DNA of 59,595 bases, filler included, from Basidiobolus ranarum (taxonomy: Eukaryota): the NCBI GenBank assembly GCA_040143965.1. It is 10 parts of 10 records of this genome, joined end to end, with 100 filler letters (N's around TTAATTAATTAA, not from the genome) between each part and the next. Parts side by side here need not be neighbours in the genome. Positions count along the whole stretch, not along the records: positions 23,919 to 29,791 come from JASJQH010008354.1; 9 more parts are not named here. One strand, written 5' to 3'. The notes under the pieces were generated by a model that was not told where the DNA came from, searched no databases, and worked only from the letters and a program-made list of their open reading frames with translations. How positions within the stretch are numbered: position 1 is the stretch's first letter; each line of letters opens with the position of its first letter. Below are positions 2,978 through 44,441 of the stretch, one piece after another. A program made the translations under genes and the position numbers.

Positions 2978-4555
2978 CTAGCCCTGTCGATTCTCGAATT
3001 TGACCCTACCGTAGGGAAGTCGAATGGAGTTTCCAACATCGATGATCTGGAATTTATCTACCATCGTTACATGATAATTACGAATCATGATACTGAGGAC
3101 GGTTTTAATCTCCTGAATGGCAAAGAAGCGTCCTGGGCAAGCAAATCTACCAATACCAAATGGCAGGAAGTCCGCGCCAATCTTGGTTGCTTGTTTGTTC
3201 TTTCCAACAAATCTCCAAGGATCAAATTTCTCGGGATTAGCCCCTTGCCATTCTTCATTGTTGTATATCTCCTCGTGATCCAGGCTCACATGCTGTCCGT
3301 TGGGAACAACCATACCGTTGGCCAGCTTGATATCCTTGAATTCCATATGACGATGTGGTAATGCGAGGTGATCGTCACGGAAGCGGAATGTTTCGCGTAC
3401 AAAGCTGTCTAGTTTCTCCAATTTTCTGATTACATCGGAGGTCCATGTGGTAACAGGGTTGGAAGTATCGGTAATCCCCAACTCCTTGAATACTTCATCT
3501 TGTTCTTTGAGGAGCTCATCTACATACTCTGGGTAGGCAGCGATATAATACAGGGTGAAGTTGGAATTCATCGAAGTGGTATGGATGGAGGCGAAGATTA
3601 GTAGGATCAGTATCACTACAATTTCATGGATGTTAATCTCATTCTCTGGATACATCTCTACCAATGTCTGCAATATATCATCGGGTCTATTCCAAGCGGA
3701 ACCTTGTGATTTCTGCTCTTAAACACGTCTCTCCACTATTGGAGTGACGGCGTTCTCAAGGATATTCCAATGCTTACTAACGGGAGCGGCAATCATATAC
3801 TGAAGTTTTGCCCAATACTTATTTAGTGTTGGGAAATATTTGAACCAGGGATTGCCATTCAGAAGTTGAGCCGTATCCATAGTGAGATTTTTGAAGGATT
3901 CAAGTAGCTCCTTATTCTCGCAAAGCTCCTCCCCGACAAATACTCTAGCACTAGCCTTGGAGATTACATTGAGAAATTTGTAGGTAGGATCGTCCAAGAT
4001 TAGAGGCTCTTTCAGATCACCAAATTGTTCATTGATAAGGGTATCCAAATGGGTGACAACAGTGCCAGTGATATGTCGCAAATTGGGTGTGAGATGCTTG
4101 GTAATTGTTTTGTGTAAGATCTCGTTATATTTCCAAGAATCTTCACCCACAATCATCTCTCCGATGTCGATGTTATCGGAGATAGCACGAAGGAAGCTCA
4201 TATCAGGTCTGAGGGCCACATCACGTACCATATCTTTCCCTACGATTGTAACAATACGACCATTGAGGTTTGCTCGGAAAACTGGACCATATTTGGCCTT
4301 TTGCTTTTTCACCCAACCACTGGGATCTGCATTATATTCCTCGGTACTGCCTTTAATGGGGTTGGTGTAGGGGACCATTGGAGGTAGATTTTTCTGACCT
4401 TGGAAATGGGATTGTGCCAGGTAGACAGCACCAGCAACACCAAGACTCAGGGCGATAGCAGTGGTGGGATTGCTCAGACCTGCGTCATTAATGGTCTGGA
4501 AGACTGTCTCAAAGCCGGTACCATTTGCAACATCGGATAGCGCTTCAACAAACAT
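2978..4555 (-). pseudogene. Intronless cytochrome P450 interrupted by a single in-frame TAA (3719-3721)
   Basis: ORFs 3719-4555 and 2978-3673 share a frame and read ...PIVERRV*EQKSQGSAWNRPDDILQ... Motifs seen: N-terminal hydrophobic anchor, LPP hinge, I-helix FASIHTTS, ExxR (ETFR), PWRF and heme motif FGIGRFACPG. No plausible intron spans the stop. Confidence 0.85.
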
Positions 4556-5882
4556 GTTTATTAGAGAAAGAGTAGGAAATTGGTATGAGGTTCCATGGAT
4601 CTTGGTGAGCCTTTTATAAGAATGGTGAGTTGTCAGTTGTATCTATGAGTCGTCAAATTTGAACACATTCTGCGGATCACACCTGGTCCAGTTGTTCATG
4701 AAGACTCCTGTACTCCGTGATTTCTATTAGCTTGGGATAATCTGGCTCATATATTAGGTTTATAATATTAGAGAGGGTTTGAAGTAGTCGACCTACATCA
4801 TCGCTCATGGTATACTATGATATGTACCTCAGCTAAATCATCTGGAGATAATATTTTGAAGGGTCGGTGTTTTCCAAATAGGATATTGATATGCGTGTCG
4901 CCAAAATCGAATCCTTCGGAAAATCCGACAGGTTTTTCCGAATGGTGTTGGAGAGCCTCTCAAACAGAGTTTTCCCGAGAATTGGAAATTCTTATCAATA
5001 CCCACTTGATATCGGGTTTATAGGATCCAATTGATCTGATAGTCTACTTTAACGCTGGAAAGGGGCAAAGGGTGAAGATCAGGGCCTTAGAGAGGTTCGG
5101 CCTCAATGTGCTGGTGGTTGTCCATTCAAAGTGGCATAAAGGCACCGAGATTGTGTGATCATTCGCGGCGGTGCTGGAAAGCATAGTATTCTCCTGAGGA
5201 TATATTCCATTACATCTTGCATGATATGAAAGTGAGAGGTTGGACGTGTCACGGAGTGGATCAGGCTGAGCGATCAGCAGTGAGCCAAGCAAACCACCGT
5301 TGGTATCTAAGATACCCAATGCTTAAAGCCGATGCAAGCCAATCATGTGGTTGCTCTCTCTTACCTTCATCACTGGTACTAATCACGACAGCCATTCATT
5401 TGATGATGCTGAGTTGAGGATTTGATTCAGTCACTGCCTATATGGTAATGCCTTTCCATATGGAATCCCTCTTTTTCATTGCTTTGGTTAGCTGAAACTG
5501 ACCTATAGCTGGATCTTTCTAGCGATGAACGCAGAGAGGCTGTATATAGAATAAACAATGATTGTGTAAGTGTGTTGTGGGAAGGCTATGTTCTGTGCCA
5601 CATGGGCGATATATATCTTGTGGGCCATGTCGGGTATATTGAAGGCTATAATGCTAGACTTCAGCCGTGCAATGCATTACCCGCAATACTCCCATATTAT
5701 GTATTAGGTATCCGCAGGGTATTCACGTCATGTCAGATTGCTTGTCATGACATGAAATTCCCTTCAATCGGATGCAAATATGCACATGTATCCCAGAATA
5801 CTCAACATTCACCCACTATCATTGGTAACCAAAATGAGCTTGTAGGGCTCAGATTTACGAATATCCAACCCGTATTAAGCAT

Positions 5883-8098: not shown

Positions 8099-8605
8099 CT
8101 AGACACTTAAGTCTTCAAGATCTTTAAGCATATGATTGGGACCAGAGATTTTGTAGCTGGATGGTCCAGGCTCTTCAATGTTGAGAACTTTGACAATTCC
8201 ATCATCGACATACATACTGTATCGCAGAGATCTCACTCCTAAACCAGGCATTACCTGAGTCAACCCAATCTTTTCGTGGAATGAGCAGTCACCATCAGAT
8301 ATAACCTCTACTTTATCCTTGATATCATAGTTTTGCGACCAAGCACGCATCACAAATGGATCATTTACAGCGGTACAATAGATGGCATCGACACCCTTCT
8401 CCTTGAATGAATCGTAGTGAAGTCCATATTCAGGAAGATGTTTGTTGCTGCAGATGGTAGTAAAGGCTCCTGGAAGACCAAAAAGGACAACTTTCTTACC
8501 CGCGAACAAATCTTTAACGGAGAGAGTACGCATTTCAGAGCCCTCCTCGGGGAGGGAGGTAAAATGCTCACTGTATGGAATCTGGTCACCTTTTTGGATA
8601 GTCAT
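8099..8605 (-). CDS. Prx5/AHP1-family peroxiredoxin, copy 1, intronless
   Basis: 168 aa; LFAGKKVVLFGLPGAFTTICS (PxxxTxxC), VNDPFVM.AW, SDG, GLGVRS.RYSM.VDDG. Confidence 0.93.
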   Translation of the reverse strand: MTIQKGDQIPYSEHFTSLPEEGSEMRTLSVKDLFAGKKVVLFGLPGAFTTICSNKHLPEYGLHYDSFKEKGVDAIYCTAVNDPFVMRAWSQNYDIKDKVEVISDGDCSFHEKIGLTQVMPGLGVRSLRYSMYVDDGIVKVLNIEEPGPSSYKISGPNHMLKDLEDLSV

Positions 8606-9490
8606 GTTGAATACGGTTTCATTAGCGCTACGTGCCTTTTATATTTCTAACATAATGATAGCTCTTGTTATCTCATTACAACATTAATAATGTTACAGCA
8701 GTCAAGCAACTAATCAATAGCCCGTTCAACTGATTTGGAAGCCACCTTTCACAAACGAATAACTCTCTCTCCGTCTTATCAACATTAATTTTTCTATTAC
8801 TAAGCACTTTGTAAATGCGCTTGCTTGAATCCCAAACAAGCGGTTTGAATAAAATAGAGCTACAACCCATAGCTCATAGCCTATAGCCCAGATCGTATCG
8901 ATTTCAAATCAAATAGATTACTAAAGTTATTTCTGAATTCCAAATTTGAAATATATCGATATACATCCTTACCTACACAATGTTCCCTGGTATCTTTTAT
9001 TTTGTTACCCAGTTGAGATCCTTTTGGACATAAACCTAAACCATCATCTCAGCCATCTTGACTGTCGACTTACTCTTACTTTGGTATTGAAAATGAAAGA
9101 ATTGAGCGTCAATGATTAATATTTAGATGACACAATTGGGATGTAGACTTATTCCCGTATATCACGGCTTAATAACCCTTTTTAGTATCTACTGGCTCTT
9201 GATCAGTATTATCGCTCTATCATATATGTCCATAGGTCGGTTACTTAATAGAGATAGTTAAGGTAATTAAATCTTTACAGGTGACACATGATAATCACTA
9301 ACTAGAGTTAAGCCTGATATGCTAATATTTGATTTTGTATTTCCCGTATTATGCGTCTTTCAATATGGATTCCATAAAAAAACTAAAATAGGTCCAAAGA
9401 ACTGAATGCTAGATACTGATAGAATCGGTTAAATGATATTTATTAATGTAATGTATACACAATATATACACTATACATACGCAAATCTAT

Positions 9491-9997
9491 CTAAACACCC
9501 AATTCTTCAAGATCCTTGAGCATATGATTGGGACCAGAGATTTTGTAGCTGGATGGTCCAGGCTCTTCAATGTTGAGAACTTTGACAACTCCATCATCGA
9601 CATACATACTGTATCGCAAGGATCTCACCCCTAACCCAGGCAACACCTGAGTAAGCCCAATCTTTTCGTGGAATGAGCAGTCACCATCAGATATAACCTC
9701 AATCTTATCCTTGATATCATAGTTTTGCGACCAAGCACGCATCACAAATGGATCATTTACAGCGGTACAATAGATGGCATCGACACCCTTCTCCTTGAAT
9801 GAATCGTAGTGAAGTCCATATTCAGGAAGGTGTTTGTTGCTACATACGGTGGTGAAGGCTCCTGGAAGACCAAAAAGGACAACTTTCTTGCCTGCGAACA
9901 AATCTTTAACGGAGAGAGTACGTATTTCAGAGCCCTCCTCGGGGAGGGAGGTAAAATGCTCACTGTATGGAATCTGGTCACCTTTTTGGATAGTCAT
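9491..9997 (-). CDS. Prx5/AHP1-family peroxiredoxin, copy 2, intronless
   Basis: 168 aa; 7 mostly conservative substitutions versus copy 1; PGAFTTVCS. Confidence 0.93.
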   Translation of the reverse strand: MTIQKGDQIPYSEHFTSLPEEGSEIRTLSVKDLFAGKKVVLFGLPGAFTTVCSNKHLPEYGLHYDSFKEKGVDAIYCTAVNDPFVMRAWSQNYDIKDKIEVISDGDCSFHEKIGLTQVLPGLGVRSLRYSMYVDDGVVKVLNIEEPGPSSYKISGPNHMLKDLEELGV

Positions 9998-10904
9998 GTT
10001 GAATACGGTTTCATTAGCGCTACGTGCCTTTTATATTTCTAACATAATGATAGCTCTTGTTATCTCATTACAACATTAATAATATTACAGCAGTCAATTG
10101 ATTAATTAATTAATGGCCACATAACCCAGATCGTATCGCTTTCGAATCACCACGGATGAATTACTAAATATACATCTTCACTTACATAATGCTTCCATGT
10201 ATGTTGTCTGGTTGAAATACTTCTGGACGTAACCCTAAGCCGCCATCTCTGTCATACTGACTGCCCAATTACTCTTACGTCAAAGATGAAGTGACCTAAC
10301 CTTTACTTTTGTGTCGACGATGAAATGATTGAGCTTTAACAATTAATATTTAAATGACGAAACTGAGATAGGCTTATTACTGTATATTACGACTAAATAT
10401 CACAAATTACTCTTTTATGTATCTACTGACCCTTTATCAATCCATCATAATGGGTTGGTTGCCTAATGGAGATAGTTGAGATGTTTTTTTCAATCAAATT
10501 TGGGCATAGCAGTATTACGTTGACAGGATGTGATATATGAAAAGCATTTACTAGAGTTAAACATGATAGACTTATACAAGACTCTTTTCCCTCTTGGCAT
10601 AGACCCTTAGGATATGAAGATCAGATATGAAAATGAAAACCACGTAATGACGATTTAGATTTGTTCAACGATCGACCTGTTGGCTCTAACAATGATCGAT
10701 CAACAAACATATGTGACAATAGAGCACCAAACATGGAACTCTGAAATGGCACTATGGTGACTAACTTCTATATGCATAGTCAAGAGACACTAAATTATAC
10801 ATTGGTTTACGCAATCCATTGTAGAGGTAGAGTTTACATCATTTGTAAACTGATTTATTCCACAAAGAATCTGATAGATGAAAATTAACCATCCATCCCT
10901 AAAC

Positions 10905-14265: not shown

Positions 14266-15625
14266 ATGCAACAGACCGAAGAAAAAAAACGTCACCTTAG
14301 GGTAGACATGCACACCCACATTCTCCCAAAACAATGGCCTGATCTTGCAAAAAAATATGGTTACTCAGGCTGGGTTCAGCTTGACCATTTTGAAGAGGTA
14401 AGTTCTCTATGAAGGTATATATTTCTCTCTATGACCCAAATTGATTGGGTTGCTTTTAGGGAAAGGCTCGTATGATGCGTGATGGCAAATGCTTTCGAGA
14501 AATAGAGTGTAATTGTTGGTCTCCTTCTCAAAGAATAGCCGAGTGTGACTCGTCCACTATAGACGTTCAAGTAAGTGTATTCCCCTAGGTGTTATTTTTG
14601 GTTCTGGGTTCCTAATGAATTTTACTGAAAGGTTCTATCAACTGTTCCAGTCATGTTCAATTACTGGGCTAAACCTAAAGATACGTTGGACCTTGCCAGA
14701 TATCTTAATGATCACATCGCTCAGGTGGTGGCTGAGGATCCCAAACGCTTTGTGGGCCTAGGTACCTTACCCATGCAGGATCCTGAATTAGCAGTCCAGG
14801 AACTTCACCGCTGTGTCAATGAACTTGGCTTGGCTGGAGTTCAAATTGGATCTCATGTAAATGAATGGAATCTGGATGCACCAGAGTTAGACCCAATTTT
14901 TGCGGTGAGCAACTCTTACACTATATATCGAGATACTGCAACCTCTACTAAAGGTTTCCTGGGAATAACTAAAGGCGGCAGAGGAACTCAATACTGCTAT
15001 ATTCGTACATCCGTGGGATATGGACACAAAATCACGTATGGAGAAGTATTGGTTTCCATGGCTCATCGGAATGGTAAGATCTTAATGAAGTATCCATCGA
15101 TTGAGTAGCTAATAATCATATGATATAGCCCTGTGAAACCACGATGGCCATTTGCTCGGTCACTTTCGGGGGAGTTCTGGATCGTTACCCTAAACTAAAG
15201 ATCGGCTTCGCTCATGGTGGAGGTTCATTTCCAGGAACACTGGGTCGCATTGAACACGGCTTCCATGCTCGACCTGATTTATGTGCTGTTAAGACAAAGA
15301 GAAGTCCCATGTAAGTAATATTGAATGAAAAGCATCGTTGCCTGGTTTGCTGACTTCAGTTTGGCGTGCCTTCAGGTCTTATCTTGATCAGATATGGATA
15401 GACTCCCTAGTTCATGATGAAGCAACCCTAGAGTTTGTCATCAAAAAGATGGGAATAGATCGGATTATGCTTGGTACCGACTACCCTTTTCCCCTTGGTG
15501 AGCTAGAACCAGGAAAGTTGGTCGACGAAAGCAAATGGCTATGTGAAGAAGACAAGGCCAAAATTCTCGGACTAAATGTATGCAAGTTCTTGAATATGGA
15601 CCCAGAATTCTACTTGAAAATGTAA
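14266..15625 (+). CDS. ACMSD: 2-amino-3-carboxymuconate-6-semialdehyde decarboxylase (amidohydrolase_2), 6 exons
   Basis: DMHTHILPKQWPDL, VLSTVPVMFNYWAKP, GLGTLPMQ, FVHPWDM, KYWFPWLIGMPCET, FAHGGGSFP, GTDYPFPLGE; five GT-AG introns. Confidence 0.92.
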
Positions 15626-16314
15626 AATACGAACCGTTGCTTTCCGCATGTAAATGTACTTTCATGGCCAATAAGTTACTCTTTCCATTGTGTAAATGTA
15701 CTCTCATGGGCAATTCCCGTGACCCGTGACTCTTGAATAAACCAATTGAGTAATCGATATAGAATCAGCGAGAATCAGCGATCTGGTTAGAATCTACATA
15801 TTTCGTGGAAATTCATTGGTGATATATATCCATGGCTATTAATCCAGAAGGTTTTTTATACGGAACCAATACTTTTCCTAGACTAAGCAGCTTATGTGCA
15901 GCACTTAATTGGGAAAGGGATGAAACTGATTAGGATATGCAGGTGTAGATAAATATGCAACTATGGCACTAAACATGCCAAACGTTTTAAATAATTAATC
16001 TTAAGATGTGGCGTAGCTTTACGATCAAGAGATAGTTGTGCAGTGGAAGTTTTCTTTTTATTGTAAAACATTGTTGTTGGATACACAATTCCAATCTCAT
16101 TAAAGAATATCCAATTTTCTAGGCGTGGACATTTTATAACTATGATACAAACAAATATGTCGAGGAATAAATGAAATAGCTTGTTGGAATGAATGTTATA
16201 TGACATGAAGAGGAAACGCTGGAAAAATTTTACAAGTACAATAATGTAGCAAATACGGCAGGGTAGATGACACCAATCATCTCTAGACTAATTTAGCACT
16301 TAATTTACGTTAAC

Positions 16315-17343
16315 TTAACGTTGAGAGGCTGAGCTACGTAAGATCTCTAACTCTTGCAACACCTCACAAAGTTTAGACTTGAGCGCGCCATTTTCACTTT
16401 GAAGTGCTTGGTTGACCCTTTCAAGATCGTGTAGGAATTGCGTGCGTTTTTCTCTACTCCTACGAGCAGCTAGTCTGTTGCGCTCTCGTCTTCTGTTGAG
16501 TCGCTTTTCGACGACAGTTTGCGGTAACTCGGGCTCGTTAGCACTTTTCATGGATTTTTTAGGACTGGCTCCTTTGGATTTCTTGTCCTTTTCGAGATCA
16601 ACTCCATCTTCAAAGGTGAAAGAAGCAGGACTGCTAAACTCCTCCTCAATAGTAGGGACTTTACCATTATTTTGATTCATTATATCAATGAATGAATCTT
16701 GGTTCTTTTGAAGCTGAATGTTGGCTGCGGAGCGGTGTGCGGATTGCGAGAAATCCATGCCATCCATGTTCATAGCAGTGCTGCTCAAATCTCCCCAAGA
16801 ATAAACTCTTTTCCGACTATTTGAAAGGTCCGGATATTCTGGGAGATTACCAAGGGAGGTTCCCGAAAAACTAGAGCGTCTGGGGGCGTTTGATTCAGGA
16901 GTCTGACCAACTGTCAAATTACCGGAAGGAAAAGAAGTTAACACGCCGGTTGAGTTGGGCTGAGCAAAGTTACTCCAATCAAAGCGGTTTGGCATCATAT
17001 CATAGGGACCCATTGACGCGGCTTGAGATATAATATTCTCGGGAAAGCAGGTTTGAGAATCAATGTTTTGAGTCATGGGGTAGTTGATTGAATTTTCGTC
17101 TTCGCTGACACTGCTTCGATTCTCAGTCAGTCTAGGTAAGTTTTCAGATGCGTCGTTGTGCATGGAATCAATTTCGCTGTCGCTCTGGTTAAGGATTTCG
17201 TTATAAAACTCACTTTCAAAGTTGTTTATGGCCTCGTTCTTGGTGTCGACAAGATCATCCATTAAACCCCAAATGGGGTTTGCCATAGAGTCTGAGAGCA
17301 TGTGTGAAGGGAAATTGGCCATATTGTTGGTAGCAAGCTCCAT
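16315..17343 (-). CDS. bZIP transcription factor
   Basis: C-terminal RRERNRLAARRSREKR basic region plus leucine heptads; long acidic/Ser-rich N-terminus; first in-frame ATG at 17343. Confidence 0.88.
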   Translation of the reverse strand: MELATNNMANFPSHMLSDSMANPIWGLMDDLVDTKNEAINNFESEFYNEILNQSDSEIDSMHNDASENLPRLTENRSSVSEDENSINYPMTQNIDSQTCFPENIISQAASMGPYDMMPNRFDWSNFAQPNSTGVLTSFPSGNLTVGQTPESNAPRRSSFSGTSLGNLPEYPDLSNSRKRVYSWGDLSSTAMNMDGMDFSQSAHRSAANIQLQKNQDSFIDIMNQNNGKVPTIEEEFSSPASFTFEDGVDLEKDKKSKGASPKKSMKSANEPELPQTVVEKRLNRRRERNRLAARRSREKRTQFLHDLERVNQALQSENGALKSKLCEVLQELEILRSSASQR

Positions 17344-18699: not shown

Positions 18700-19594
18700 G
18701 TGACTAACATATAACTCTTAATCCAGCTTAACGACTTGTAGCATCAATCCTGGCATAGATTAGTTTTTGAGGCTGTATAGATCGTTATTGCAAATTATTA
18801 TCGTGTACTCATCGCAATCAATATAAAAATAAACCATGTACATACCTAATGATGCAACCCCTCCCTACGCTGTCTACTTTTATGGAGTCGAAATTCATGG
18901 GAAAATACCTTTCTACCCTTATACAGCCATTAACCCACACACTGCACTCATCTCCTACAAGAGTAAAGATTTCCTTGCACCTCTGCTTTGCTGCCACACA
19001 AGATCGATTCAGTTAGTAAATCAGTTAGTAAATGAAAAAATAGTAACTATTCTTATTTGCAGTCTCTGCCAAGCAAATTTGAATTGGCAAATCAAGTACA
19101 AATTTGTACCACGCTAGATCCTTACACTTGCACCTCCTCTTAAGCTATTCACTAGGGGCTGGCCCAAAGTTCACCATATCCATATGAATGATTTATATAT
19201 ATATCAATACTCATGGGAAAAATCGTCATCCATGAGTCAATGAACGACAAAAATGATATACTTGCTCGCAGATGTCAAGTGTATTTTTAGTCAGCCTTGC
19301 GAAAGTAGTAATTAATAATCATCGGATATTTAAGTTGCTTTCCTTTGACATCAAATCAAATTGATCAAAAATAGCTATGGGGCAGGCACACTACACTCAT
19401 TCATATCTTTGTACTCCACAAATCACGTGACCAATCAAGAACGTGGATAATTACCCATATTTAGAACTAGAGAAAGAAATGGAGCACATAAAAAAGCGAG
19501 TAATTCGTTGAGGAATACTGGCTACATATACTTGACGGGTGTGTGCTTTCTCCAACAATAAGCATTTTGATTTTATACACTACTAATTGAGAAT

Positions 19595-20531
19595 ATGAGT
19601 TGGTTCCTTAACAAGATCAAACGTACTCTAACCGGGGATGGAAGTAGTGAACCCAACACTTTCAGTTTACCTGAGGATTACGACTACGTTAATGAGAGTG
19701 AATGTATGGGCTGCGAAGACCCTTGTGATGACCATAAGCAATATCCTAGTTACCTTAAGATAGATCGAGAAGAATCCATGGAAGGGACCGTCAAGCCTTA
19801 CTTTAAGCAGCTCTTAATTTCTACCGGAAAACATGATTGGGCAGAGCGCATTGAAGAGGTGCAAGGAAGTCTACCAGCAGCATTAAGCGAAAAAATAGCT
19901 AACCGCAAAGGACCTAGAATTATTGTGACAAATACAAGTAGAAAAATACCCGAAGGAATCAAAGAGGGCGACCACGAAGTTATCATTTTACCTGATAACA
20001 AACTGGTTCGTAATGTTAACATCAGCAATTTAGATTGCTTCCTCGATACATATGTCTACAGTAATGACCAACATTTAGAAGAATTCGAGGTAGAACAACT
20101 GCCAAAAGAGCTTGGCTTTATTTTGATCTGTTCTCACAAGAGAAGAGATAAGCGATGCGGAGTCACCGCACCCATTTTAGAAGAAGAATTCCTCCGAGTA
20201 CTTAAAGAAAAAGAAATGCAAAACAAGGTCGAGGTTTTGATGGTCAGTCATATTGGAGGTAAACTTATGATATCTTTCATATAATTCAGAATCGTACTTG
20301 ATAATTGATTGTATATCATAGGACACAAATTCGCTGGTAACGTTATTGTATATCCAGGTAAGCTTTCCTATGATGATTTTGTATTCAATGAAAACTCCTA
20401 ATATCAATTTTCTTCTAGTTGGTGTATGGTACGGCCGTGTCAAATCTTGTCATGCTAAAGCTATTGTGGAGAAAACGCTTCTTGATGAGCATATTATTCA
20501 GGAACTGTATCGTGGTAGGCTCGATTGGTAG
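19595..20531 (+). CDS. APD1: Apd1/Aim32-family sucraseferredoxin-like (thioredoxin-fold 2Fe-2S) protein
   Basis: Exons 19595-20258, 20322-20357, 20419-20531 give ICSHKRRDKRCG, SHIGGHKFAGNVIVYP, GVWYGRV, ELYRG. Confidence 0.88.
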
Positions 20532-22448
20532 ACTTTCCTTAAATCTCACTGGTCATTTTCAACTAGTTTTTCGCATCTAAATAATCACACATACCCTACA
20601 TGAGTTTTTTAATACGGCTCCTGAGGAGGTTGAGAGTCATCAACAATAAATTGTTGTAAACATCACTTTCATTGACCAGCATTTATTTGGTTCCATCTCC
20701 AAGGCAATTCTTCCAGCTAACTTTAGCTCATGCGATAGAATATCTGGGGCAAATGCTTCAATATCGCAGATACTTTTGTCGTGGATAGCTACATGCAAAA
20801 CAAGCATGCATAACTATCAAGTCAGCAATCCTCAAATAAATGACATTATATGGTATTCTATATTCGCTATCACTGAAACATGCCTTAATGTTACGCAGTT
20901 AATCACTTAGTGTCACGACTGCTAATCTCTTTGGCCTCAGCAATATATGTTTATGTCTCAGGGTCATTCATTGCAGGGCTTTCTTGATTGTCATTCTGGT
21001 ACTCACTCCCTCTTGGGTAACTGTTTTTGTATTTTCAACGAGCATACACAGATTTAGCAATCTTTGGGTTATCTTCTAAACATTCCTTTGCTTTGCGAAA
21101 TTAGGTTTCATAGCCGAACTTCCTTTTAAATCATGCGTGTGCTATGTTGAGAGCATTGGTTCGATTATATATACACCTTCAGTTATCTAGGTTACTCTTA
21201 GGAAAGTTGATCATTCTCAGTCATTAAACACACTTGGGTGCATTATCCTCCATGTTCCACTTGTTAGAACCATTTCTTTGATAAGATACTTGGAGCTCTT
21301 CCAATATATCCAATTAGTGCCATAATCAATATTCAGAAACGACATATATGGAGTTTCCAGTTGGTTGCTGCTAAACCATGGATATCGTATCTGCTATAGA
21401 TCAGGTGACTTCTGAAACTGGCAATGTCCAACAATACGGTGGTATATAGTATATAGACCACCTAGACTCAACTAGGAATTCGGAACAAATGATGTCTTCG
21501 TCAACTCAGACAAAGAAGGGGCTGCCTATAAGCTCATATACTCCTATCTCCAGATGAAGGAAATTGTGGGGGATGGTTTTGGGGAATCAAGTGCTTATAT
21601 ACAACTCTTTAGTGCTGAAACGAATACATCAATTGTTCCAGATATACCTGACTCATGTACATGCTTTGACTAATATAATTGGATAATTTGGAAGGCCCTT
21701 GCTATTTTAGGAGCATCCTAGAAACATACTCCAAAGATGAAGTGAATAAATTGTTATATTTACATGATGTAAAAATGTTGATGTCAGATATGAGCATTCA
21801 TCTCTACCTCTACATAACTAATGCACATCAATCAAGTATCTTAATTCTGAAACGATCTATTACAGATTCACTTCCATTTTACCAAGGCTGTATTTAAAGT
21901 TACTAGCCAATTTATGCATTTCTAGCCATAGCGCTGCTCATAAAGCCATCATCCCACCACAACTTGACTTAATATCTTGTTATTTTCTACTTGATGTCAA
22001 CGTTATGCAAATGGGTCTACATCTTATTGCTTCCCACTTTCGTCAGGACTGTTAATCTAACGAATGTAACACAAAGTAGGTCATAACTAAACTCCGAGGA
22101 TTACCACACTTTGCTAAGCCAATGTTTTTTAAGATTCTTGCTCCGAATTGTTAGATTGTTCAACTTGCAGTCTAGCGAATGGTTGTGGATTCTGTACTAA
22201 GGTATTGAACGTAACTTTTACTCTGCTATCGTTGAGAAGCAAAGTTCTTACACATCTATAAGAGTCAGCAATGCATTCAAGGTAGTTGGTTTGAACCTAG
22301 TAAGGAAGCTGAATGCGCGACAGAAGATTATCTTTATGGACAGTGTTATAGTAAATATATTCAATTTTTTTTCTGTTGTTTGTAGCACTATATTCTTAGC
22401 CCATTTTCCTTTTCTCTAAACAAATACATTGCAGTTCCGAATGTACAT

Positions 22449-23818: not shown

Positions 23819-23918
23819 NNNNNNNNNNNNNNNNNNNNNNNNNNNNNNNNNNNNNNNNNNNNTTAATTAATTAANNNNNNNNNNNNNNNNNNNNNNNNNN
23901 NNNNNNNNNNNNNNNNNN
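23819..23918. other. Artificial contig spacer
   Basis: N-run with TTAATTAATTAA. Confidence 0.98.
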
Positions 23919-23970
23919 CGATGTGGAAGGCTGTGGTGGAAGACTGGACTGTTGCTTTCATGTCACTCAT
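23919..23970 (-). CDS. 5' end of a second DDGS copy (inverted), cut by contig start
   Basis: Reverse complement reads [17 protein letters not shown] versus [17 protein letters not shown] at 27317; the 16 nt upstream of the ATG (ctattcaattcttaac) are identical. Confidence 0.85.
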
Positions 23971-25544
23971 GTTAAGAATTGAATAGGAATGTTAAGATGC
24001 TATAACTAGCTCAACCCACGACTTAATATATACCTTTTTCAGTTGTATCGGCGATGTTGCTATTTGAACGGTGAGTTTATGACTGAAGCATCATTTAATT
24101 CGTTAGCTACAAATCGAGTATACCCTAACCTGATCGTTCATATCGTTCAATAATATGTCTGCGATCCCCCTTCCTTCCAGAGACGAGTCTTAGGTATGCT
24201 TGCGTTAAAGGATTCGGCGAAGTAGATGCTTGATTACGTGGAGTATATTAGGGGTAAGCATTATGTTACACGACGGAGTATTAAACCTGATAAGTTTAGG
24301 TGTAATGCTTTGGGCTCTTCTGAATCATCTGGGACAAGGGGGTACGGTAATCAATGATTGTGTGAAGCAAACCTTCTCACCACTTTATGCTTAATCATCT
24401 CATCTTTTCAGAGCATGTTTCAGTGGACCGTAACAAATAACATGGACGGTGATTGTCACTGATTCAGTATTGTCAATATGCCGATAAGTGCTTGAGTGAG
24501 AATCGGATCGGTGTTTGTATATGAATGAACAATCTCATCATCGAGGAATAGTACATTTGTCTCTTGTAGTGCATCCAGTAACTCGTCTCTAGAGGCTTAG
24601 GATCGTTTCGATACTTCTAGAAATAACCCTCAGATCCAAGTGTAACTCATTCCTGATAATACTTCTTGATTCGTTCTTGTATGTGTCAGGTTTAGGAACT
24701 AATTATTGGATAGCATTCGCATTGCGTCGTTTATATAAGCGTTAAAATCCAGTCTTAGCTTCACAGTCGATTCAAACCACTGAAATTACAAGATCGCGAC
24801 TTGATTATTGACCTTTGATTCTACGATTACCACAACCTGATAATATCTGCGAATACATCACTGCTACCCCCATGGATTCAATTCATAGGTCTGTTACGTG
24901 GTTACGTTGAGGTACAAATATATTGAGCCCCTTGCGACTAACCGTTTAGCTCGAATAGAATAGGATCATCTGTCGCTGATGGAGCAGGCTTGACGATCGA
25001 TGCTCCAGGTGTGGAGTCGGTAACGCAATAGAATATCAGCGACGGTAGTAGTACGTAGTGCTAAATCCATTTAATATATGCTATTATTGCCACAGAAATA
25101 GGGGATATGAAACTGTATTCTCCTTGATCCTCTGAGAGATGTAGTCCATAGTGAATCGGTTAACCGTTAACCTTTATTAACATCATGTCACCATCGTGGC
25201 TATCCAGTTTCCTGGAACGTGAGCTATGAGATATATATTTAAATTCGATTTTACAATCCGAGCGCATGACTCAGAGTTGTGGTTGCAATGGGTTCTTCTC
25301 ATTAGCGAGGTTTCACTTCCATAGACGCACATCGGGGTTCGGATGTCTATAGAGATGTTATTAGTGATGCAATTGGTCGTCAATAGTATATCCACTGTTG
25401 CCATCTATTCAGCGAACATTGCGTTTCTCCCTCATTGATGAGCATGCCCGTCTGACGTATACATCGGAAAATACGAGGAATTGGAGACAATTTAAGAACC
25501 ACGATTTCACTCCTGCTCAACCATCAATTGCATACAACCAAAAC

Positions 25545-26645
25545 ATGAGCAAGCCTAAAGCTACGCAACCTCCAGTCGATGGATCTTTTACTTACTTCAA
25601 TGATGGACGTGAGTGTGCTACGCAATGAAACTGCAAGCCAACTCTTACTTATACTTACACTATCAATTTATAGGAGAGGTAGAGCTTCTTCGTTACGTTT
25701 ATGCGTTGGGTTCTCAAGTCGAGAATAATCCTCAGGCAATTCTCGATGCAATTGACAAGTTCGGTAACGAAGAAAAGTACTTGATGAACGTAGGTCAATG
25801 GAAAGGCGTTACTGTTGAGGAACAGATAAAGGAGAATAAACCTAAGGTAACAAATATGCTTACTTTTTTATCTTCAACCAGATACATTTACCGCTTTTAC
25901 TGGTAGGTTATGGTTGAATTGGGCTGTTACGTCGGCTACAGTGCTATATCCTTCGCTAGGCATCTAAAAAACATTCCTGGATCACGTTATTACTCGATTG
26001 AAATGGATCCTCTCTTTTCTGCGATTGCCACCAAGGTAACGAATTCTACAGATGTATGAATAAAGTAGATATGCCAGTAGTAATGCGGCGCTTCCAATGT
26101 TATTGTAGCTAATCGAACTTGCAGGTCTACAGGATATCGTGAAGGTACAAATTATTGATTCATTACTCCATAGGATGACTCATCAACCTTAACTTCCAGG
26201 TTATCACAGCCTCCGCTGATAAGGGGTTATTAAAGTTACAAAAGCAATACAAAGTTGATAAAGTGGATTTCTTTTTTATTGATCACACCAAGGATCGGTA
26301 CTTAATATCTTATTGGTTTGGCTACCACTAGATACTAATCACTACTTATCCAATATCCAGTTATTTGCCAGATTTACAAACCATAGAGTCATTACAACTA
26401 CTACAAAAGGTGAACAATACATTCCAGTGGGATCGGCACTTCATATTCAAGCCGCTAAAGCTAACGTGATATTTTCTGCACTTTAGGGGTCCGTAATCGT
26501 TGCTGATAATGTCATTCAGCCAGGGAATCCCCCTTATCTAAACTACATTCGTAACCACAAACACTTTTCAAGCAGAATGGTAGAAAGTTACGAGCCATAT
26601 ACTGCTGTAAAGGACGCTATTGAAATATCTGTCTATACTGATTGA
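25545..26645 (+). CDS. Catechol-O-methyltransferase-like SAM-dependent O-methyltransferase (MysB-equivalent), 7 exons
   Basis: Spliced YFNDGR/EVELLRYV...AIDKFG...YLMNVGQWKG...KPK/VMVELGCYVGYSAI...FIDHTKDR/YLPDL.../GSVIVADNVIQPGNPPY...KDAIEISVYTD*; adjacent to DDGS. Confidence 0.88.
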
Positions 26646-27316
26646 TCTGAAAGCTGATGGCTTCATTGAATTAAAAAAAGTACGCCAGATCAAGAAAAAT
26701 TGATGTCATTTCCAACCAAAAGTTTAATATGTTCTGAGCTAAAGTCAAAGCGAAACTTTAATTAAAATGAGCAATACACCCTTACATCCAAAGTGCTCGT
26801 GACTATATATACATAGTAAATAAAAGGAAATCTTGATTAAACTGCGATCTGAGTCATTCCAAAGAATCCAGGATTTGTGGCAGTAGGAATAGTTGGTTCT
26901 CCAGGTGTGGCAAGCCGAAGATGAACCGCCAAAGACAATCTTAAGCGAATGACTACACAAAATCACATAACCAGAGGTCGAATTAGTTACAAATTTGATG
27001 ATCAAGGTTCTTGCAATCTGATGTGATAAGCTTTCAGATCGACGATCGCAACTCACATCAGGTAGCATAATCTACATGAAAACGTATTCACGAATTCTAG
27101 AGACTACGATTTGGCCGATTAGCAAGCATCCCTGCTTTCTAAAATAAGAAGGATTTCACGTATGTCCCAGTGATTAGACCTCAAAATCGTAGTGAGTAAG
27201 GTATTGCGTCTTTTTCCCAGCTCCTGATCGGAATCGTCCAAAATTGTAGGTATAAAAGAATCGTTGTTGATATCTCTTTAGTTAAACAGTTTGAACTATT
27301 CTATTCAATTCTTAAC

Positions 27317-28678
27317 ATGAGTGACATGAAAGCAACAGTCCAGTCTTCCACCAATGCCTTCCACATCGAAGGTTACGAGAAGATCACTTACGACTTCAAG
27401 TTCGTCCATGGAATCTTTAACTCGGAGAATGGCGACTTGGCTGAATGCTACAAGAAATGGGGACGTTGCCTTGCCGTTGTTGATCACAATGTCAGTGAGC
27501 ATTATGGTGAGCAGATGGCTGACTACTTCAAGCATTACAATCTCACGCTGAAGGTGTTCTCGGTACACATCGGGGAACAAGGGAAAACCATGTCGACCTT
27601 CTTGTCAATCGTGGATGCGTTCGCGGAGTTCGGACTGGTGAGAAAGGAGCCAGTGCTGGTGATTGGCGGAGGACTTGTTACAGATGTGGCAGGATTTGCA
27701 TGTGCCTCGTATCGTCGCAACTCCAACTTCATCCGTATCCCTACCACATTGATCGGACTAATCGATGCCAGTGTTGCCATCAAGGTAGCCGTCAACCACG
27801 GGAAGTTGAAGAACCGACTTGGAGCATATCATGCACCCATGATGACATTCTTGGACTTCTCCTTCCTCAGAACACTGCCCAAGGCTCAAATTCGGAATGG
27901 GATGGCGGAGTTGATCAAGATATCGGTGGTGTCGAATAAGGAGGTGTTTGATCTGCTTGACAAATATGGGGATGAACTCCTTGAGACCCACTTTGGCCAT
28001 GTGAATGGAACGGAGGAAGTGCGAGCGGCAGCGGACAAGATCAACTATGACGGGATCAAGACAATGCTGGAGTTGGAGGTCCCTAACCTTCACGAAATCG
28101 AGCTCGACCGAGTGATTGCATTCGGACACACATGGTCACCCACACTTGAGCTCACTCCCAAGGTTCCCCTTCGTCACGGCCACGCAATCAACATCGACAT
28201 GGCCTACTCGGTGACCATTGCTCAGAAGCGTGGGTACATCACTGAAGAGGAGCGAGACCGCATCCACAAGTTGATGAGTCGGATCGGGCTCTCTCTCCAC
28301 CACGAGTTATTTGAGATTGAACTCATCTCCAAGGCCACTGAGTCGATTAAGCTCACTCGGGATGGGTTGCTTCGTGCGGCTGTTCCTAAACCCATTGGAC
28401 TCTGCCACTTCATCAACAATCTGTCTCGTGAGGAGATGGAAGTAGCACTATTCGATCACCGTAAACTAGTGAAGAAGTACCCGCGTGGGGGAGATGGTGT
28501 AGATGCATATGTGGATGCCATCGACATGGAGTCAGGTGAGGATCTTCATCATCTACTTAAGCAGAAGACACCCAAGAGTGGGCCAATATTGAAAGTTCTC
28601 TATCAATCATCATCCGACAAGGAGAGGAGCAATGGGTCAGATCAAGTGTCAGTAGATACAGCCACAGACTGCTGCTGA
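27317..28678 (+). CDS. mysA: Desmethyl-4-deoxygadusol synthase (DDGS, MysA-type sedoheptulose-7-phosphate cyclase), intronless
   Basis: DHQS-fold motifs [28 protein letters not shown]-type [45 protein letters not shown]-terminal YPRGGDG. Confidence 0.9.
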
Positions 28679-29791
28679 AGCAAGAGCAAAGGGTGAGTAA
28701 TGGATGTAAACTAAGAATAGTACTGAGCACAGTGAAGAAGAGTGTATAATTGCTGAACTGTATTTGAATTGATGCAATTGAATAAACCAAGTACTCTTTA
28801 ACCATTGATCCAAATCCTCTATTCTGATTATATTACATAATCAATAACGGAATAAGTCATCTATCCTTATTACATTTCAAGCACAGACGACAAATAGAAA
28901 GAGCACAAAAAATATCTGGTTGAAGAGTTTTTTATTTAAATCAATATCTAGTTTTAACTTTTACCACTCCCCCTCCTCCACCTGCAACTCCACCAGATAT
29001 TTATAGCAGGTTTTCGGTGTAGGGGTCAACATTGACTCACTTCTAATTTATTTTCTTTATATTTCAATCAATTACCTAGTATATAACTAAGATATCATTC
29101 ACATTTGCTCGATTGTTCTCGCGATCTTTTGAAATCTAATTGATACAGACTGTATCCTAAATGTTAGTAACCAATGTATAGATTCGTATCATCGTTAGTT
29201 GCACATACCGAAGAAGAGTTGGGAAAGATTTAGACCAGTTGTAGACCATGGGAATAATAGATGTTGATAAGTAGATTTTAAATCTCAATATTTTTCAAAT
29301 TGTACCCATAGCAACTGTATACTAGCTTACGATGCATCAACACTCTGGATTGTGAAATTTCTACCCCTATTTCGAAGCTGAACTCGCTGAATATGAAGCC
29401 TACTTCCTCCTTAGCTGCATTCCAGTGAACGTAATTCAATGCTGTCAATACAACCTAAGGAAGAAGATATTTTACCTGTACGATTTCATATGTAATGAAA
29501 ACAAGGCAATATAAGACTATAAAGAGAAGTGAAAGCCCTTAACGCTTCTGTCAAGAATGTTAAATGTCTTTCAAAAACTCCGCCCTAAATCGAACAATCG
29601 TCTTGAGTATTTGCTAGATCCCGAGTTCAAAGCATCATCTGTCTTTTATTTACCTTCAAGCTCCATCAAGATCGAATCTAGTTAGTATCATTGGTTCATT
29701 CCTCTATGATGCTCTGTTTAAGCTTTAAGTTTTTCAGACAAAACGAGCCTATGAAATGTGAAAATTAACAGTCTCGAAACACCACGATCAG

Positions 29792-29891
29792 NNNNNNNNN
29801 NNNNNNNNNNNNNNNNNNNNNNNNNNNNNNNNNNNTTAATTAATTAANNNNNNNNNNNNNNNNNNNNNNNNNNNNNNNNNNNNNNNNNNNN
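29792..29891. other. Artificial contig spacer
   Basis: N-run with TTAATTAATTAA. Confidence 0.98.
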
Positions 29892-42000: not shown

Positions 42001-44441
42001 AATGGGGGCAAATATACCACAAAACTCTTCTCTAACTTCCATTGAACACATGGGATAAAACAGCTGACTACAGTGCCATATTCTCCACAGAAGAATGGAG
42101 TAGCAGAACATGCAAGCAGATCAATAATGGAAAAGGCAAGATCAATGCTTCATGATCAAGATTTACCAAAACAGTTCTGGGCTGAATCTGTGCAACTGCA
42201 GCATATATTAGGAATAGATGTCCTGCTATGTCTGTATTGGCTATGACACCTTATCAAGCTTGGTTTGAAAGTAAACCTGATATGTCTAATCTCAGAGTTT
42301 TTAGAAGTACTGCAACTGCAATGATTCCAGACCAGAAGTGATCAAAATTAGACCAAAAAAGCTAGAAATGTCTTTTTTTGGGATATTGTGTTGGGACAAA
42401 AGGGTACAGACTGTATGAAACTGAAAATAAGAAGCTAATCAATTCAAGGGATGTGGAATTTGCCGAAGAAGAAAACTTTTCAATCAAAACAACCCAGGAT
42501 CAAGAAAAACAACCAAAAATTGATGAAAATTCTTTTTCTCAACAAATCTTAATCCGTGAGAAAAACATTGAAGATTCCTTACCTGCACTCTCCTCAACTG
42601 AGCCTGTGGTGTTTCATTGCCCAAGTTGATACAGAAGTTGTAGTGCCAATTTCCCATCTTAGGAGATCCAATTGGATGAGTTCTCTGCCTGATTACTACT
42701 CTCACACTAGCCAAAAGGAGCCTAGTGCTAATTTAGCCTTTTTTGATAAACCCAATCCAGTACTGGAGGCTATGGAGAGCCCTAACACAAAGTTTTGGAG
42801 TTCTGCAATGGCAGAGCAGTATTAGTCACTTATAGATAACCAAACTTGGGCTTTGTTTAAGTTACCAGATGATTAAAAACCAATTGGATACAAATGGATG
42901 TTAAAAGTTAAAGGCAAGCTGATGGATCTGTAGAAAGATATAAAGCCAGACTTGTGGCTAAAGGCTACTCTCAAATGGAAGGACTGGACTTTAATGAAAC
43001 ATTTGCTGCTGTAGCAAAGTTTAATTCCATCAGAACCATACTTGTGGTGGCAGCAAAACACAGCTTAAAAATCCATCAAATGGATGCTAAAATGCTTTTT
43101 GAATGGAGAATTGGAAGAGGATATACTCACAGATCAACCAGATGATTTTGTGGATCCTGAGCACCCTGAGGATGTGTGTAAGCCACAAAAGTCACTGTAT
43201 GCACTTAGAGAATCACCCAGGGCCTGGTACAGTATGATAGATACAAACTTGGAATCACTTGATTTCCAAATGAGTATGTGGATTTTGGGATCTACTTAAA
43301 GACAGATAAGGACAGTAGGTGATACTTGCCTTATATGTATATAATCTGATTATAGCTACTAATAATGATGAAGCTTTCAGGAGCACCAAAAGAGATCTAT
43401 CAGTCCAATTCAAGATGATTGATTTAGGTGAACTTATGTATTTTTTAGGTCTGCAGATCCATACATATATATTGAGGAAATCTATCACTCTGAATCAATC
43501 TAAAAGCATCTCAGACATTCTCAGACATTGCAGGATGGTTAATAGTAAGCCAGTAGCAACTGCCATGGATCCAGGTGTGAAACTAGTCAAAAATCCCATT
43601 TGAAATGAAAAAAATCAGCCAAATATGGCTCAAAGTATGTTATTTGAAAGCCCTGAGTTCCCTTATTATTCTATGGTAGGTAGTTTGATCTATGCTATGA
43701 CTGGAACCCAACCAGATATCTCTTTTGCAGTGGGAGTAGTTAGCCAACATGTGTAAAACCCAGGATCTAAGCATTATGCAGCAGTTAAGCAGATTTTCAG
43801 ATATTTGAAGGGGACAACTGATCTGGGATTAAAATCCACATATTCTTATGAGAATAAGTATCTAATTGGGTTTAGTGATGCAGATTGGGGATGTGATATT
43901 GAGGACAGTAGATCTATCACTGAATATATCTTTCTCTATATTGAAGTAGCCATATCTTGGAATAGCAAGAAACAGCCTACCATAGCACTTTCAACAACTG
44001 AAGCAGAGTATATGGCAGCATCATGTACAACAAAGAAGGCTATATGTTTAAGGAAACTGTTTAAAGACTTGGGCATTTTTCAAAGTTCACCCACCATACT
44101 TTTCAAGGATAATCAAAGTTGTATTTCTTTAGCTGAAAATCCCAAATTTCATGCCAGAAGTGAGCACATTGACATTCAACATCACTTTGTTAGGGAAGCT
44201 ATTGAGAATAAGCATGTTCAACTGATGAAATGATTGCTAACATCCTTACCAAACCATTACCCAAGCCTAAATTTGAAGAATCAATATTTAAATTAGGATT
44301 GAGATATATGAATATTTAGTTGAGTGAGAGTGTTGAAGTTTATTGTCTTTATTAGATTTGTTTTCTCTAGATTTATACATTTGACTATTTCACATATCGC
44401 ATATAAGTTAGTTAACATTACATAGTCAAATATCACTTAGC
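42001..44441 (+). mobile_element. Degenerate Ty1/Copia LTR retrotransposon (integrase-RT-RNase H, PPT, start of 3' LTR)
   Basis: NGGKY...[67 protein letters not shown]. Many stops and frameshifts. PPT 44320-44330; LTR starts TGTTG at 44331; its right end is not determined. Confidence 0.93.

Follow-up and report, generated by a model that had tools for sequence, protein, structure and literature searches.

The DNA examined here, hereafter the window, is a stretch of 59,595 nucleotides (filler included) from the gut fungus Basidiobolus ranarum (GenBank assembly GCA_040143965.1). One of its contigs carries genes for two enzymes of mycosporine synthesis, a DDGS-type cyclase and an O-methyltransferase (O-MT), and a gene for the third, an ATP-grasp ligase, lies on another contig of the assembly. 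By comparison with characterised homologues, a full mycosporine pathway of three steps is quite probably encoded by B. ranarum, divided between two loci. The organism had been described in an earlier note on this DNA as an early-diverging fungus, and a published abstract indeed places it in the Zoopagomycota. Two of the proteins are identical to database entries that carry the B. ranarum label. The window consists of ten contigs joined by artificial linkers (N-run, TTAATTAATTAA, N-run), and adjacency across linkers is not genomic. The locus is the entire contig C8354 (JASJQH010008354.1), which occupies window positions 23919-29791 between linkers at 23819-23918 and 29792-29891, in an assembly of 65 Mb and 13,754 contigs.

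The identity of the pathway genes, their intact frames, their layout and their linkage to host DNA can be observed directly. On C8354, the gene order is DDGS'<- ->O-MT-> DDGS->. The first of these, DDGS' (23919-23970, minus strand), is the 5' start of a cyclase gene whose 17 codons are broken off by the contig end; it points away from the other two genes, as the earlier note described. A divergent intergenic region of 1574 nt (23971-25544), probably a shared promoter region, separates it from the O-MT gene (25545-26645, plus strand; 235 aa). The latter comprises seven exons (25545-25608, 25674-25846, 25907-26035, 26109-26144, 26200-26297, 26361-26409 and 26487-26645) and six GT-AG introns of 55-77 nt, a splice model verified by its identity to database protein P0266. 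Following a spacer of exactly 671 nt between the O-MT stop and the next start (26646-27316), a gap previously estimated at ~670 nt, with a TATA-like GGTATAAAA ~65 nt 5' of that start, lies the complete, intronless and co-oriented DDGS (MysA) gene (27317-28678, plus strand; P0001, 453 aa). No ATP-grasp gene occurs among the whole contig's open reading frames (ORFs), as had been reported for the flanks.

The cyclase is best matched among solved structures by Anabaena DDGS (5TPR; E 7.6e-174, 582 bits). Matches are far weaker to the EEVS ValA (4P53; E 5.6e-69, 236 bits), to DHQS structures (E 5.6e-34 or weaker, <=121 bits) and to DOIS (90 bits), and the protein falls below the cut-off of the aroB model (201 vs 305). 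In alignments, residues E254, A268 and T347 are as in 5TPR, whereas ValA has L, D and H there; we take these three positions to be the published fingerprint sites that distinguish DDGS from EEVS. PMC4426668 confirms the existence of fingerprint sites, and that alone. Two separate DHQS/AROM-like matches (35-36%) occur elsewhere in the genome, so DDGS is not needed as a shikimate enzyme. Structure matches, active-site residues and phylogeny thus agree that the cyclase is a DDGS, neither a DHQS nor an EEVS, as first proposed.

The O-MT belongs to the catechol O-methyltransferase (COMT) subfamily. It matches rat COMT at E 4.5e-49 and scores above the PF01596 cut-off, and its IDHTKDRY and VADNV segments align with LDHWKDRY and LADNV of the rat enzyme, in which the DHxK and ADNV motifs presumably hold the metal and catalytic residues. 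Identity to cyanobacterial MysB is only 27% over 138 aa, and the O-MT is not among the six genome matches of a MysB query; it should therefore not be called MysB, the name that the earlier note had implied. The genome's best MysB match (42% over 84 aa) is an intron-containing CCoAOMT-like gene (C2459:233-1264, L098), the product of which has an apparent N-terminal targeting peptide. In 80 bacterial DDGS loci, MysB is matched in 62 (median 53%) and MysC in 77, and a COMT query yields weak cross-hits (<=54 bits) in 41. The idea that COMT replaced MysB specifically in Basidiobolus was rejected, since the COMT type is the norm in ascomycete-type clusters. A yeast genome paper likewise counts catechol O-methyltransferase under mycosporine synthesis (PMC12204325).

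In a tree of 78 sequences, the O-MT groups with a Dikarya-type clade against three intronless B. ranarum COMTs and the chytrid and oomycete COMTs (support 99.6), while standing outside the Dikarya-type clade itself (97.7). It is thus sister to that clade, which includes the O-MTs of fungal DDGS clusters. Tree supports throughout are Shimodaira-Hasegawa-like approximate likelihood-ratio (SH-aLRT) values from fast IQ-TREE runs, and no Basidiomycota sequence was knowingly included. The three intronless paralogues (C9878, C283 and C191; L099, L100 and L101) form a clade of their own (support 100). In the set of the 150 best relatives of the O-MT, a C-terminal MysC-like domain was found in four of 149 other proteins; all four (P0269, P0270, P0271 and P0293) are ascomycete (Aspergillus, Verticillium, Claussenomyces) and could be genuine fusions or the result of merging two gene models.

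Evidence for a second cyclase copy

The match of DDGS' to the full copy extends over 68 nt, including 16 nt of 5' flank, at 97% identity (E 9e-27), far beyond chance. One further DNA match exists in the assembly: the first 107 nt of contig C1961 are 99% identical to window 28671-28777 (plus strand), which comprises the DDGS stop codon and 3' untranslated region. Beyond position 107, C1961 diverges and runs on into a DNA ligase I gene rich in introns, the sole match to a ligase I query in the assembly (1/1). There are thus two differing 5' flanks and two differing 3' flanks for a single assembled middle, the pattern of a collapsed near-identical repeat. From these contig ends, a complete second DDGS copy very probably exists, and C1961:1-107 is likely the 3' end of DDGS'. 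In its simplest form, the map reads ligase I <- DDGS' <- -> O-MT -> DDGS ->, in which the pairing of 5' and 3' ends is ambiguous.

A view in which B. ranarum has a single functional DDGS, with DDGS' no more than a brief fragment or an artefact of assembly, draws on the small extent of what is assembled of the second copy (17 codons plus 107 nt of 3' end) and on its flanks, since similarity of the two 5' flanks past the nearest 20 nt is insignificant (shuffle p 0.26). This view is unlikely, however, given that both 5' and both 3' flanks reach a contig edge inside DDGS and that DDGS' occupies the conserved head-to-head position described below. B. ranarum is reported to keep duplicated genes (PMC3281927). 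Ten matches to the GAPDH C-terminal domain in the assembly are likewise consistent with extensive gene duplication.

DDGS has an unusual composition. The GC content of its third codon positions (GC3) is 0.60, vs 0.27-0.53 in host genes, and 27% of its four-fold codons end in G, a share that is 0-5% across six glycolytic genes and 4-16% across ten further gene stretches. Strong expression was rejected as the reason for the high GC3, as codon adaptation to the six glycolytic genes (0.38) lies in the range of ordinary genes.

This foreign composition, together with nearest proteins that are amoebozoan and rotifer among the listed matches, is what could be said for C8354 being contamination from another organism, a possibility that the earlier note had raised. 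The O-MT on the same contig nevertheless resembles host genes in GC3 (0.39) and contains short GT-AG introns, and the ATP-grasp ligase is surrounded by fungal housekeeping-type genes. Moreover, the overlap of the DDGS 3' end with the contig bearing the sole DNA ligase I match ties the locus to host DNA, and contamination is accordingly very improbable.

The ligase and the predicted pathway

A Rhodococcus MysC query (from a mysABCD-type operon) has one match in the genome, at C7208:12081-13466 on the minus strand (51%, E 3e-123), outside the window. The gene is intronless and encodes, in a single open frame, a MysC-like ATP-grasp protein of 461 aa (P0121). An Aspergillus O-MT/ATP-grasp fusion query returned the same gene and no second ligase in the genome. 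Of the two possibilities that the earlier note had left, a ligase on another contig or a pathway that stops short, the first thus has its gene. The term "cluster" used there was nonetheless an overstatement, as two of the three enzymes, DDGS and O-MT, are linked and the ligase is not. Both P0121 and the Rhodococcus MysC control score above the NCBIfam NF005315 cut-off (430 and 421 bits; cut-off 406); no solved structure matched P0121. Its identity is 56-62% to 15 cyanobacterial-type ligases, 49-54% to 12 actinobacterial ligases, 29-37% to 15 of 16 fungal-type (ascomycete) ligases and 23% to one outlier among the latter. At 39 columns in which bacterial and fungal-type ligases differ, P0121 is bacterial at 31, fungal at three and other at five.

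Unrelated host genes flank the ligase on both sides. From their translations, we take these neighbours to be a V-ATPase c subunit, an NTF2/RRM protein, a WD40 protein, ribosomal L23 and a sugar transporter. A further neighbour is a sucrase/ferredoxin-like gene (15599-16631, minus strand; PF06999) with a paralogue at window 19571-20580 (plus strand), and homology between the two contigs is confined to this gene. Contig C331 was considered as a homeologue of the ligase region and rejected, as only an MFS paralogue is in common and no ligase remnant occurs there. One query for MysD found no such gene (0/2 candidates) in this fragmented assembly, and MysE was not searched for; no disubstituted mycosporine-like amino acid is expected, given that no MysD was found.

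The layout can be compared with 80 metagenome loci (L112-L191) that were fetched with the O-MT/ATP-grasp fusion alignment. These are unlabelled, partly redundant and biased to clusters, with fungal origin inferred from introns and similarity. COMT is present in 79, DDGS in 44 and both in 43, and in all 43 of the latter the two genes stand head-to-head, with a gap of 1044-2231 nt between tblastn hits. The commonest O-MT break in the fungal-type loci lies near residue 82, compared with codon 79 in B. ranarum; tblastn breaks are too coarse for a conclusion on intron positions. The complete DDGS downstream of the O-MT in B. ranarum takes the position that the ATP-grasp gene has in many fungal clusters. 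Three of the loci (L143-L145) have a COMT head-to-head with a divergent ATP-grasp gene (23-28%) and no DDGS match in 14.8 kb.

Among the closest known systems are the Phaffia and ascomycete clusters. They have the same three enzyme types with a COMT-type O-MT, the same head-to-head DDGS/O-MT arrangement across ~1.5 kb, and no MysD; the O-MT motif FxDGRExEL is also common to the ascomycete-type loci, with which alone it was compared. In Phaffia rhodozyma, the DDGS and O-MT genes are separated by an intergenic region (IGR1) of 1568 bp, and the DDGS-OMT-ATPG cluster (MYC) yields mycosporine-glutaminol (PMC10057719). B. ranarum differs from these clusters in that its ligase is unlinked and its DDGS and ligase genes are intronless. 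It differs from the ascomycete-type loci in its inverted second DDGS (DDGS on both strands in 0/80 loci), and from fungal-type ligases in the low identity and mostly bacterial diagnostic residues noted above. Cyanobacterial and actinobacterial mysABC(D/E) operons, such as Anabaena Ava_3858-3855, are similar in DDGS (58-68%), in ligase (49-62%) and in predicted chemistry up to a mono-substituted mycosporine. In contrast to these, B. ranarum has a COMT-type enzyme instead of MysB, no operon and no MysD found, and a DDGS that falls within a eukaryote clade. The vertebrate and green-algal gadusol route through EEVS and MT-Ox starts from the same substrate and leads to a sunscreen-type product (PMC4426668, PMC7826186), but the B. 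ranarum cyclase is not an EEVS.

The chemistry, co-expression, product and role set out here are carried over from characterised homologues. In the first step, DDGS, probably present as two near-identical, outward-facing copies around the O-MT, would cyclise sedoheptulose-7-phosphate to demethyl-4-deoxygadusol, the reaction described for this enzyme (PMC4426668). The COMT-type O-MT, with S-adenosylmethionine, would then convert demethyl-4-deoxygadusol to 4-deoxygadusol. Finally, the unlinked MysC-like ligase would phosphorylate the C3 hydroxyl and add one amino acid, as described for MysC acting on 4-deoxygadusol (PMC10666671), to give a cyclohexenone mycosporine absorbing at ~310 nm. In Phaffia, each of the three genes is required and the trio is sufficient in yeast, where DDGS and OMT alone lead to 4-deoxygadusol (PMC10057719). 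The layout may have arisen from a conserved fungal core, DDGS'<- ->O-MT, with an inverted DDGS copy now 3' of the O-MT and the ligase elsewhere.

Judged from sequence, the pathway genes are real and intact and most likely functional, and a mono-substituted mycosporine is the probable product. Mycosporine-glycine would be the first guess, given the bacterial state of the ligase at most diagnostic columns, with a glutamine-type product second; this guess is weak, and the residues may only mirror slow evolution of the ligase. Protection of hyphae and of the aerial conidia against ultraviolet (UV) and oxidative damage would be a likely role. In an alternative reading, the pathway would stop at 4-deoxygadusol, itself an antioxidant and UV-B absorber, with DDGS dosage doubled and the ligase uncoupled or repurposed. 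Such an endpoint would suit an unlinked ligase combined with an apparently duplicated DDGS, as well as the stable accumulation of 4-deoxygadusol in ligase-less Phaffia (PMC10057719). Yet the ligase is full length, without stops and above its family cut-off, and the MysC chemistry described in PMC10666671 acts on 4-deoxygadusol, so that this early endpoint is improbable and the three-step pathway is preferred.

Several points weigh against the three-step pathway and its layout as presented here. The functional case is built from sequence comparison, and the amino-acid specificity of the ligase is not readable from its sequence. The ligase is also unlinked to DDGS and the O-MT, and co-regulation could only be supposed. 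The middle of DDGS' is absent from the assembly, in which one full DDGS copy is assembled. With respect to the second step, three other COMTs and the CCoAOMT-like gene on C2459 could perform it. Raw identity puts the O-MT about as near to a chytrid COMT (49%) as to the cluster O-MTs (45-51%), so its grouping depends on its FxDGRExEL motif and on tree topology, and the Dikarya-type clade also includes COMTs with unchecked neighbours. Lastly, 43/79 is not an unbiased rate, since the metagenome loci were selected by fusion and are partly redundant.

Other genes of the window lie on other contigs. Two nearly identical tandem ORFs (8102-8638 and 9494-10030, minus strand) stand beside an Hsp70 start at ~11101 and represent a recent local duplication; they read like a PRX5-type peroxiredoxin, presumably a stress gene. 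From translation, we also take 2981-4642 (minus strand) to be a cytochrome P450-like gene and 43757-44230 (plus strand) a Ty1/copia RNase H-like fragment.

Origin of the genes

The cyclase phylogeny proposed in the earlier note places the B. ranarum DDGS among eukaryotes, in a clade (support 100) that also includes fungal-type, rotifer and Planoprotostelium-like sequences. A direct bacterial origin was rejected for the two placements tested, actinobacterial and Nostoc/Chlorogloeopsis, by approximately unbiased (AU) tests (p 5e-8 and 3e-59), for which 34 of 61 aligned DDGS sequences were used. Within the eukaryotes, a basal placement (p 0.54), one with Dikarya (0.47) and one with the protist and rotifer sequences (0.44) fare alike. 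The ligase falls between bacterial and fungal-type sequences, with AU p 0.83 for a placement with fungi, 0.25 with cyanobacteria and 0.19 with actinobacteria; its grouping with fungi has a support of 72.5, and long-branch attraction was flagged. Despite its cyanobacterial top matches, a separate cyanobacterial transfer of the ligase is not supported, as the eukaryote-clade DDGS has the same bias (bacterial at 17 of 23 diagnostic columns); no ligase placement was rejected. All three proteins branch outside the sampled ascomycete (Dikarya-type) clades.

Among the best 120 of 3276 DDGS matches, the top named entries come from Planoprotostelium fungivorum (68%), Adineta ricciae (71%) and cyanobacteria (64-68%). 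The highest identities among listed matches, 68-71%, belong to P. fungivorum (P0002) and Adineta (P0007, P0255), which fall with P0003-P0005, P0031 and P0043 in an amoebozoan and bdelloid clade (98.8) within the eukaryote group. No paper was found on DDGS-type cyclases of amoebozoans or bdelloid rotifers. The C-terminal tail VDAID..GE..H.LK..CC is common to B. ranarum and the Planoprotostelium group, whereas Dikarya have VDASDTGY; a terminal CC occurs in 4 of 41 fungal-type DDGS. In comparison with the intronless B. ranarum gene, each of the 40 full fungal-type DDGS hits extends over 136-235 nt more.

Ancient inheritance and eukaryote-to-eukaryote transfer of the pathway are evenly balanced. 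Under vertical descent, the DDGS/COMT/ATP-grasp set would predate the split of Zoopagomycota and Dikarya, with slowly evolving copies kept in B. ranarum and the genes lost from most early-diverging fungi. This history, for which the chances fall just short of even, accords with the position of all three genes outside and adjacent to the long-branched Dikarya-type clades, with the head-to-head layout and spacer size in common with Dikarya-type loci, and with the six host-type introns of the O-MT; the AU tests did not reject a grouping of B. ranarum with Dikarya for either DDGS or the ligase. It is set back by the codon use of DDGS, by the modest support for joining the ligase to fungi under flagged long-branch attraction, and by the relatives found, as the 120 listed matches for DDGS or for the ligase name neither a second Basidiobolus nor any other early-diverging fungus.

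Alternatively, an amoebozoan-like or unsampled eukaryote outside Dikarya may have been the donor, by horizontal transfer to the B. ranarum lineage, of the whole pathway or of DDGS and the ligase at least, with the ligase possibly acquired separately from bacteria. Transfer of this kind is held just as tentatively. It would explain why the nearest listed DDGS relatives are Planoprotostelium, its unnamed relatives and bdelloid rotifers, why the tail motif is common to the Planoprotostelium group, why DDGS and the ligase are intronless, and why DDGS composition is unlike that of host genes. There are counterweights, however. A placement with the protist and rotifer sequences is no better than its alternatives, and the direction could be from a fungus to a fungivorous amoeba or rotifer; the terminal CC is also found in a few fungal-type DDGS, the ligase has host-like GC3 (0.39), and GC-biased gene conversion within an inverted, near-identical pair may also raise the GC3 of DDGS.

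A more comprehensive scenario, which is speculative and rather unlikely to hold in full, would make the head-to-head DDGS/COMT cluster older than Dikarya and the B. ranarum enzymes near-ancestral, with a ligase for mycosporine-glycine. Non-Dikarya fungi would have been the DDGS donors to a fungivorous amoeba and to bdelloid rotifers, and conversion would keep the DDGS pair identical and raise its GC3. If true, the B. ranarum ligase would make the mycosporine-glycine of cyanobacteria and marine organisms, not the glutamine-derived mycosporines of Dikarya.

Significance for fungal mycosporines

Neither for Basidiobolus nor for any other non-Dikarya fungus was a published report of these genes found, although supplementary tables of horizontal gene transfer or a survey of C7-cyclitol synthases may list them. 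The main text of preprint 2021.12.02.471044 has 0 mentions of mycosporine, gadusol or ATP-grasp, and in PMC6850671, a paper that matches both mycosporine and Basidiobolus, the mention of mycosporine concerns black fungi. According to a review, mycosporines are present in "Zygomycetes" (PMC5666432); as a class of compounds they are therefore nothing new in this group. What B. ranarum adds is a known pathway in a lineage for which no genetic report was found, its layout split and duplicated and its ligase differing from that of Dikarya. Since the chemistry is already known, the interest lies in evolution and, to a modest degree, in biotechnology.

The two loci extend the genes of the predicted mycosporine pathway beyond the higher fungi and supply candidates for the mycosporines of zygomycetes. 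A ligase intermediate between bacterial MysC and the ATPG of Dikarya offers an entry to the change in amino-acid specificity. With a Zoopagomycota sequence standing at the base of the DDGS clade of eukaryotes, it can be tested how old fungal sunscreens are and where they came from.

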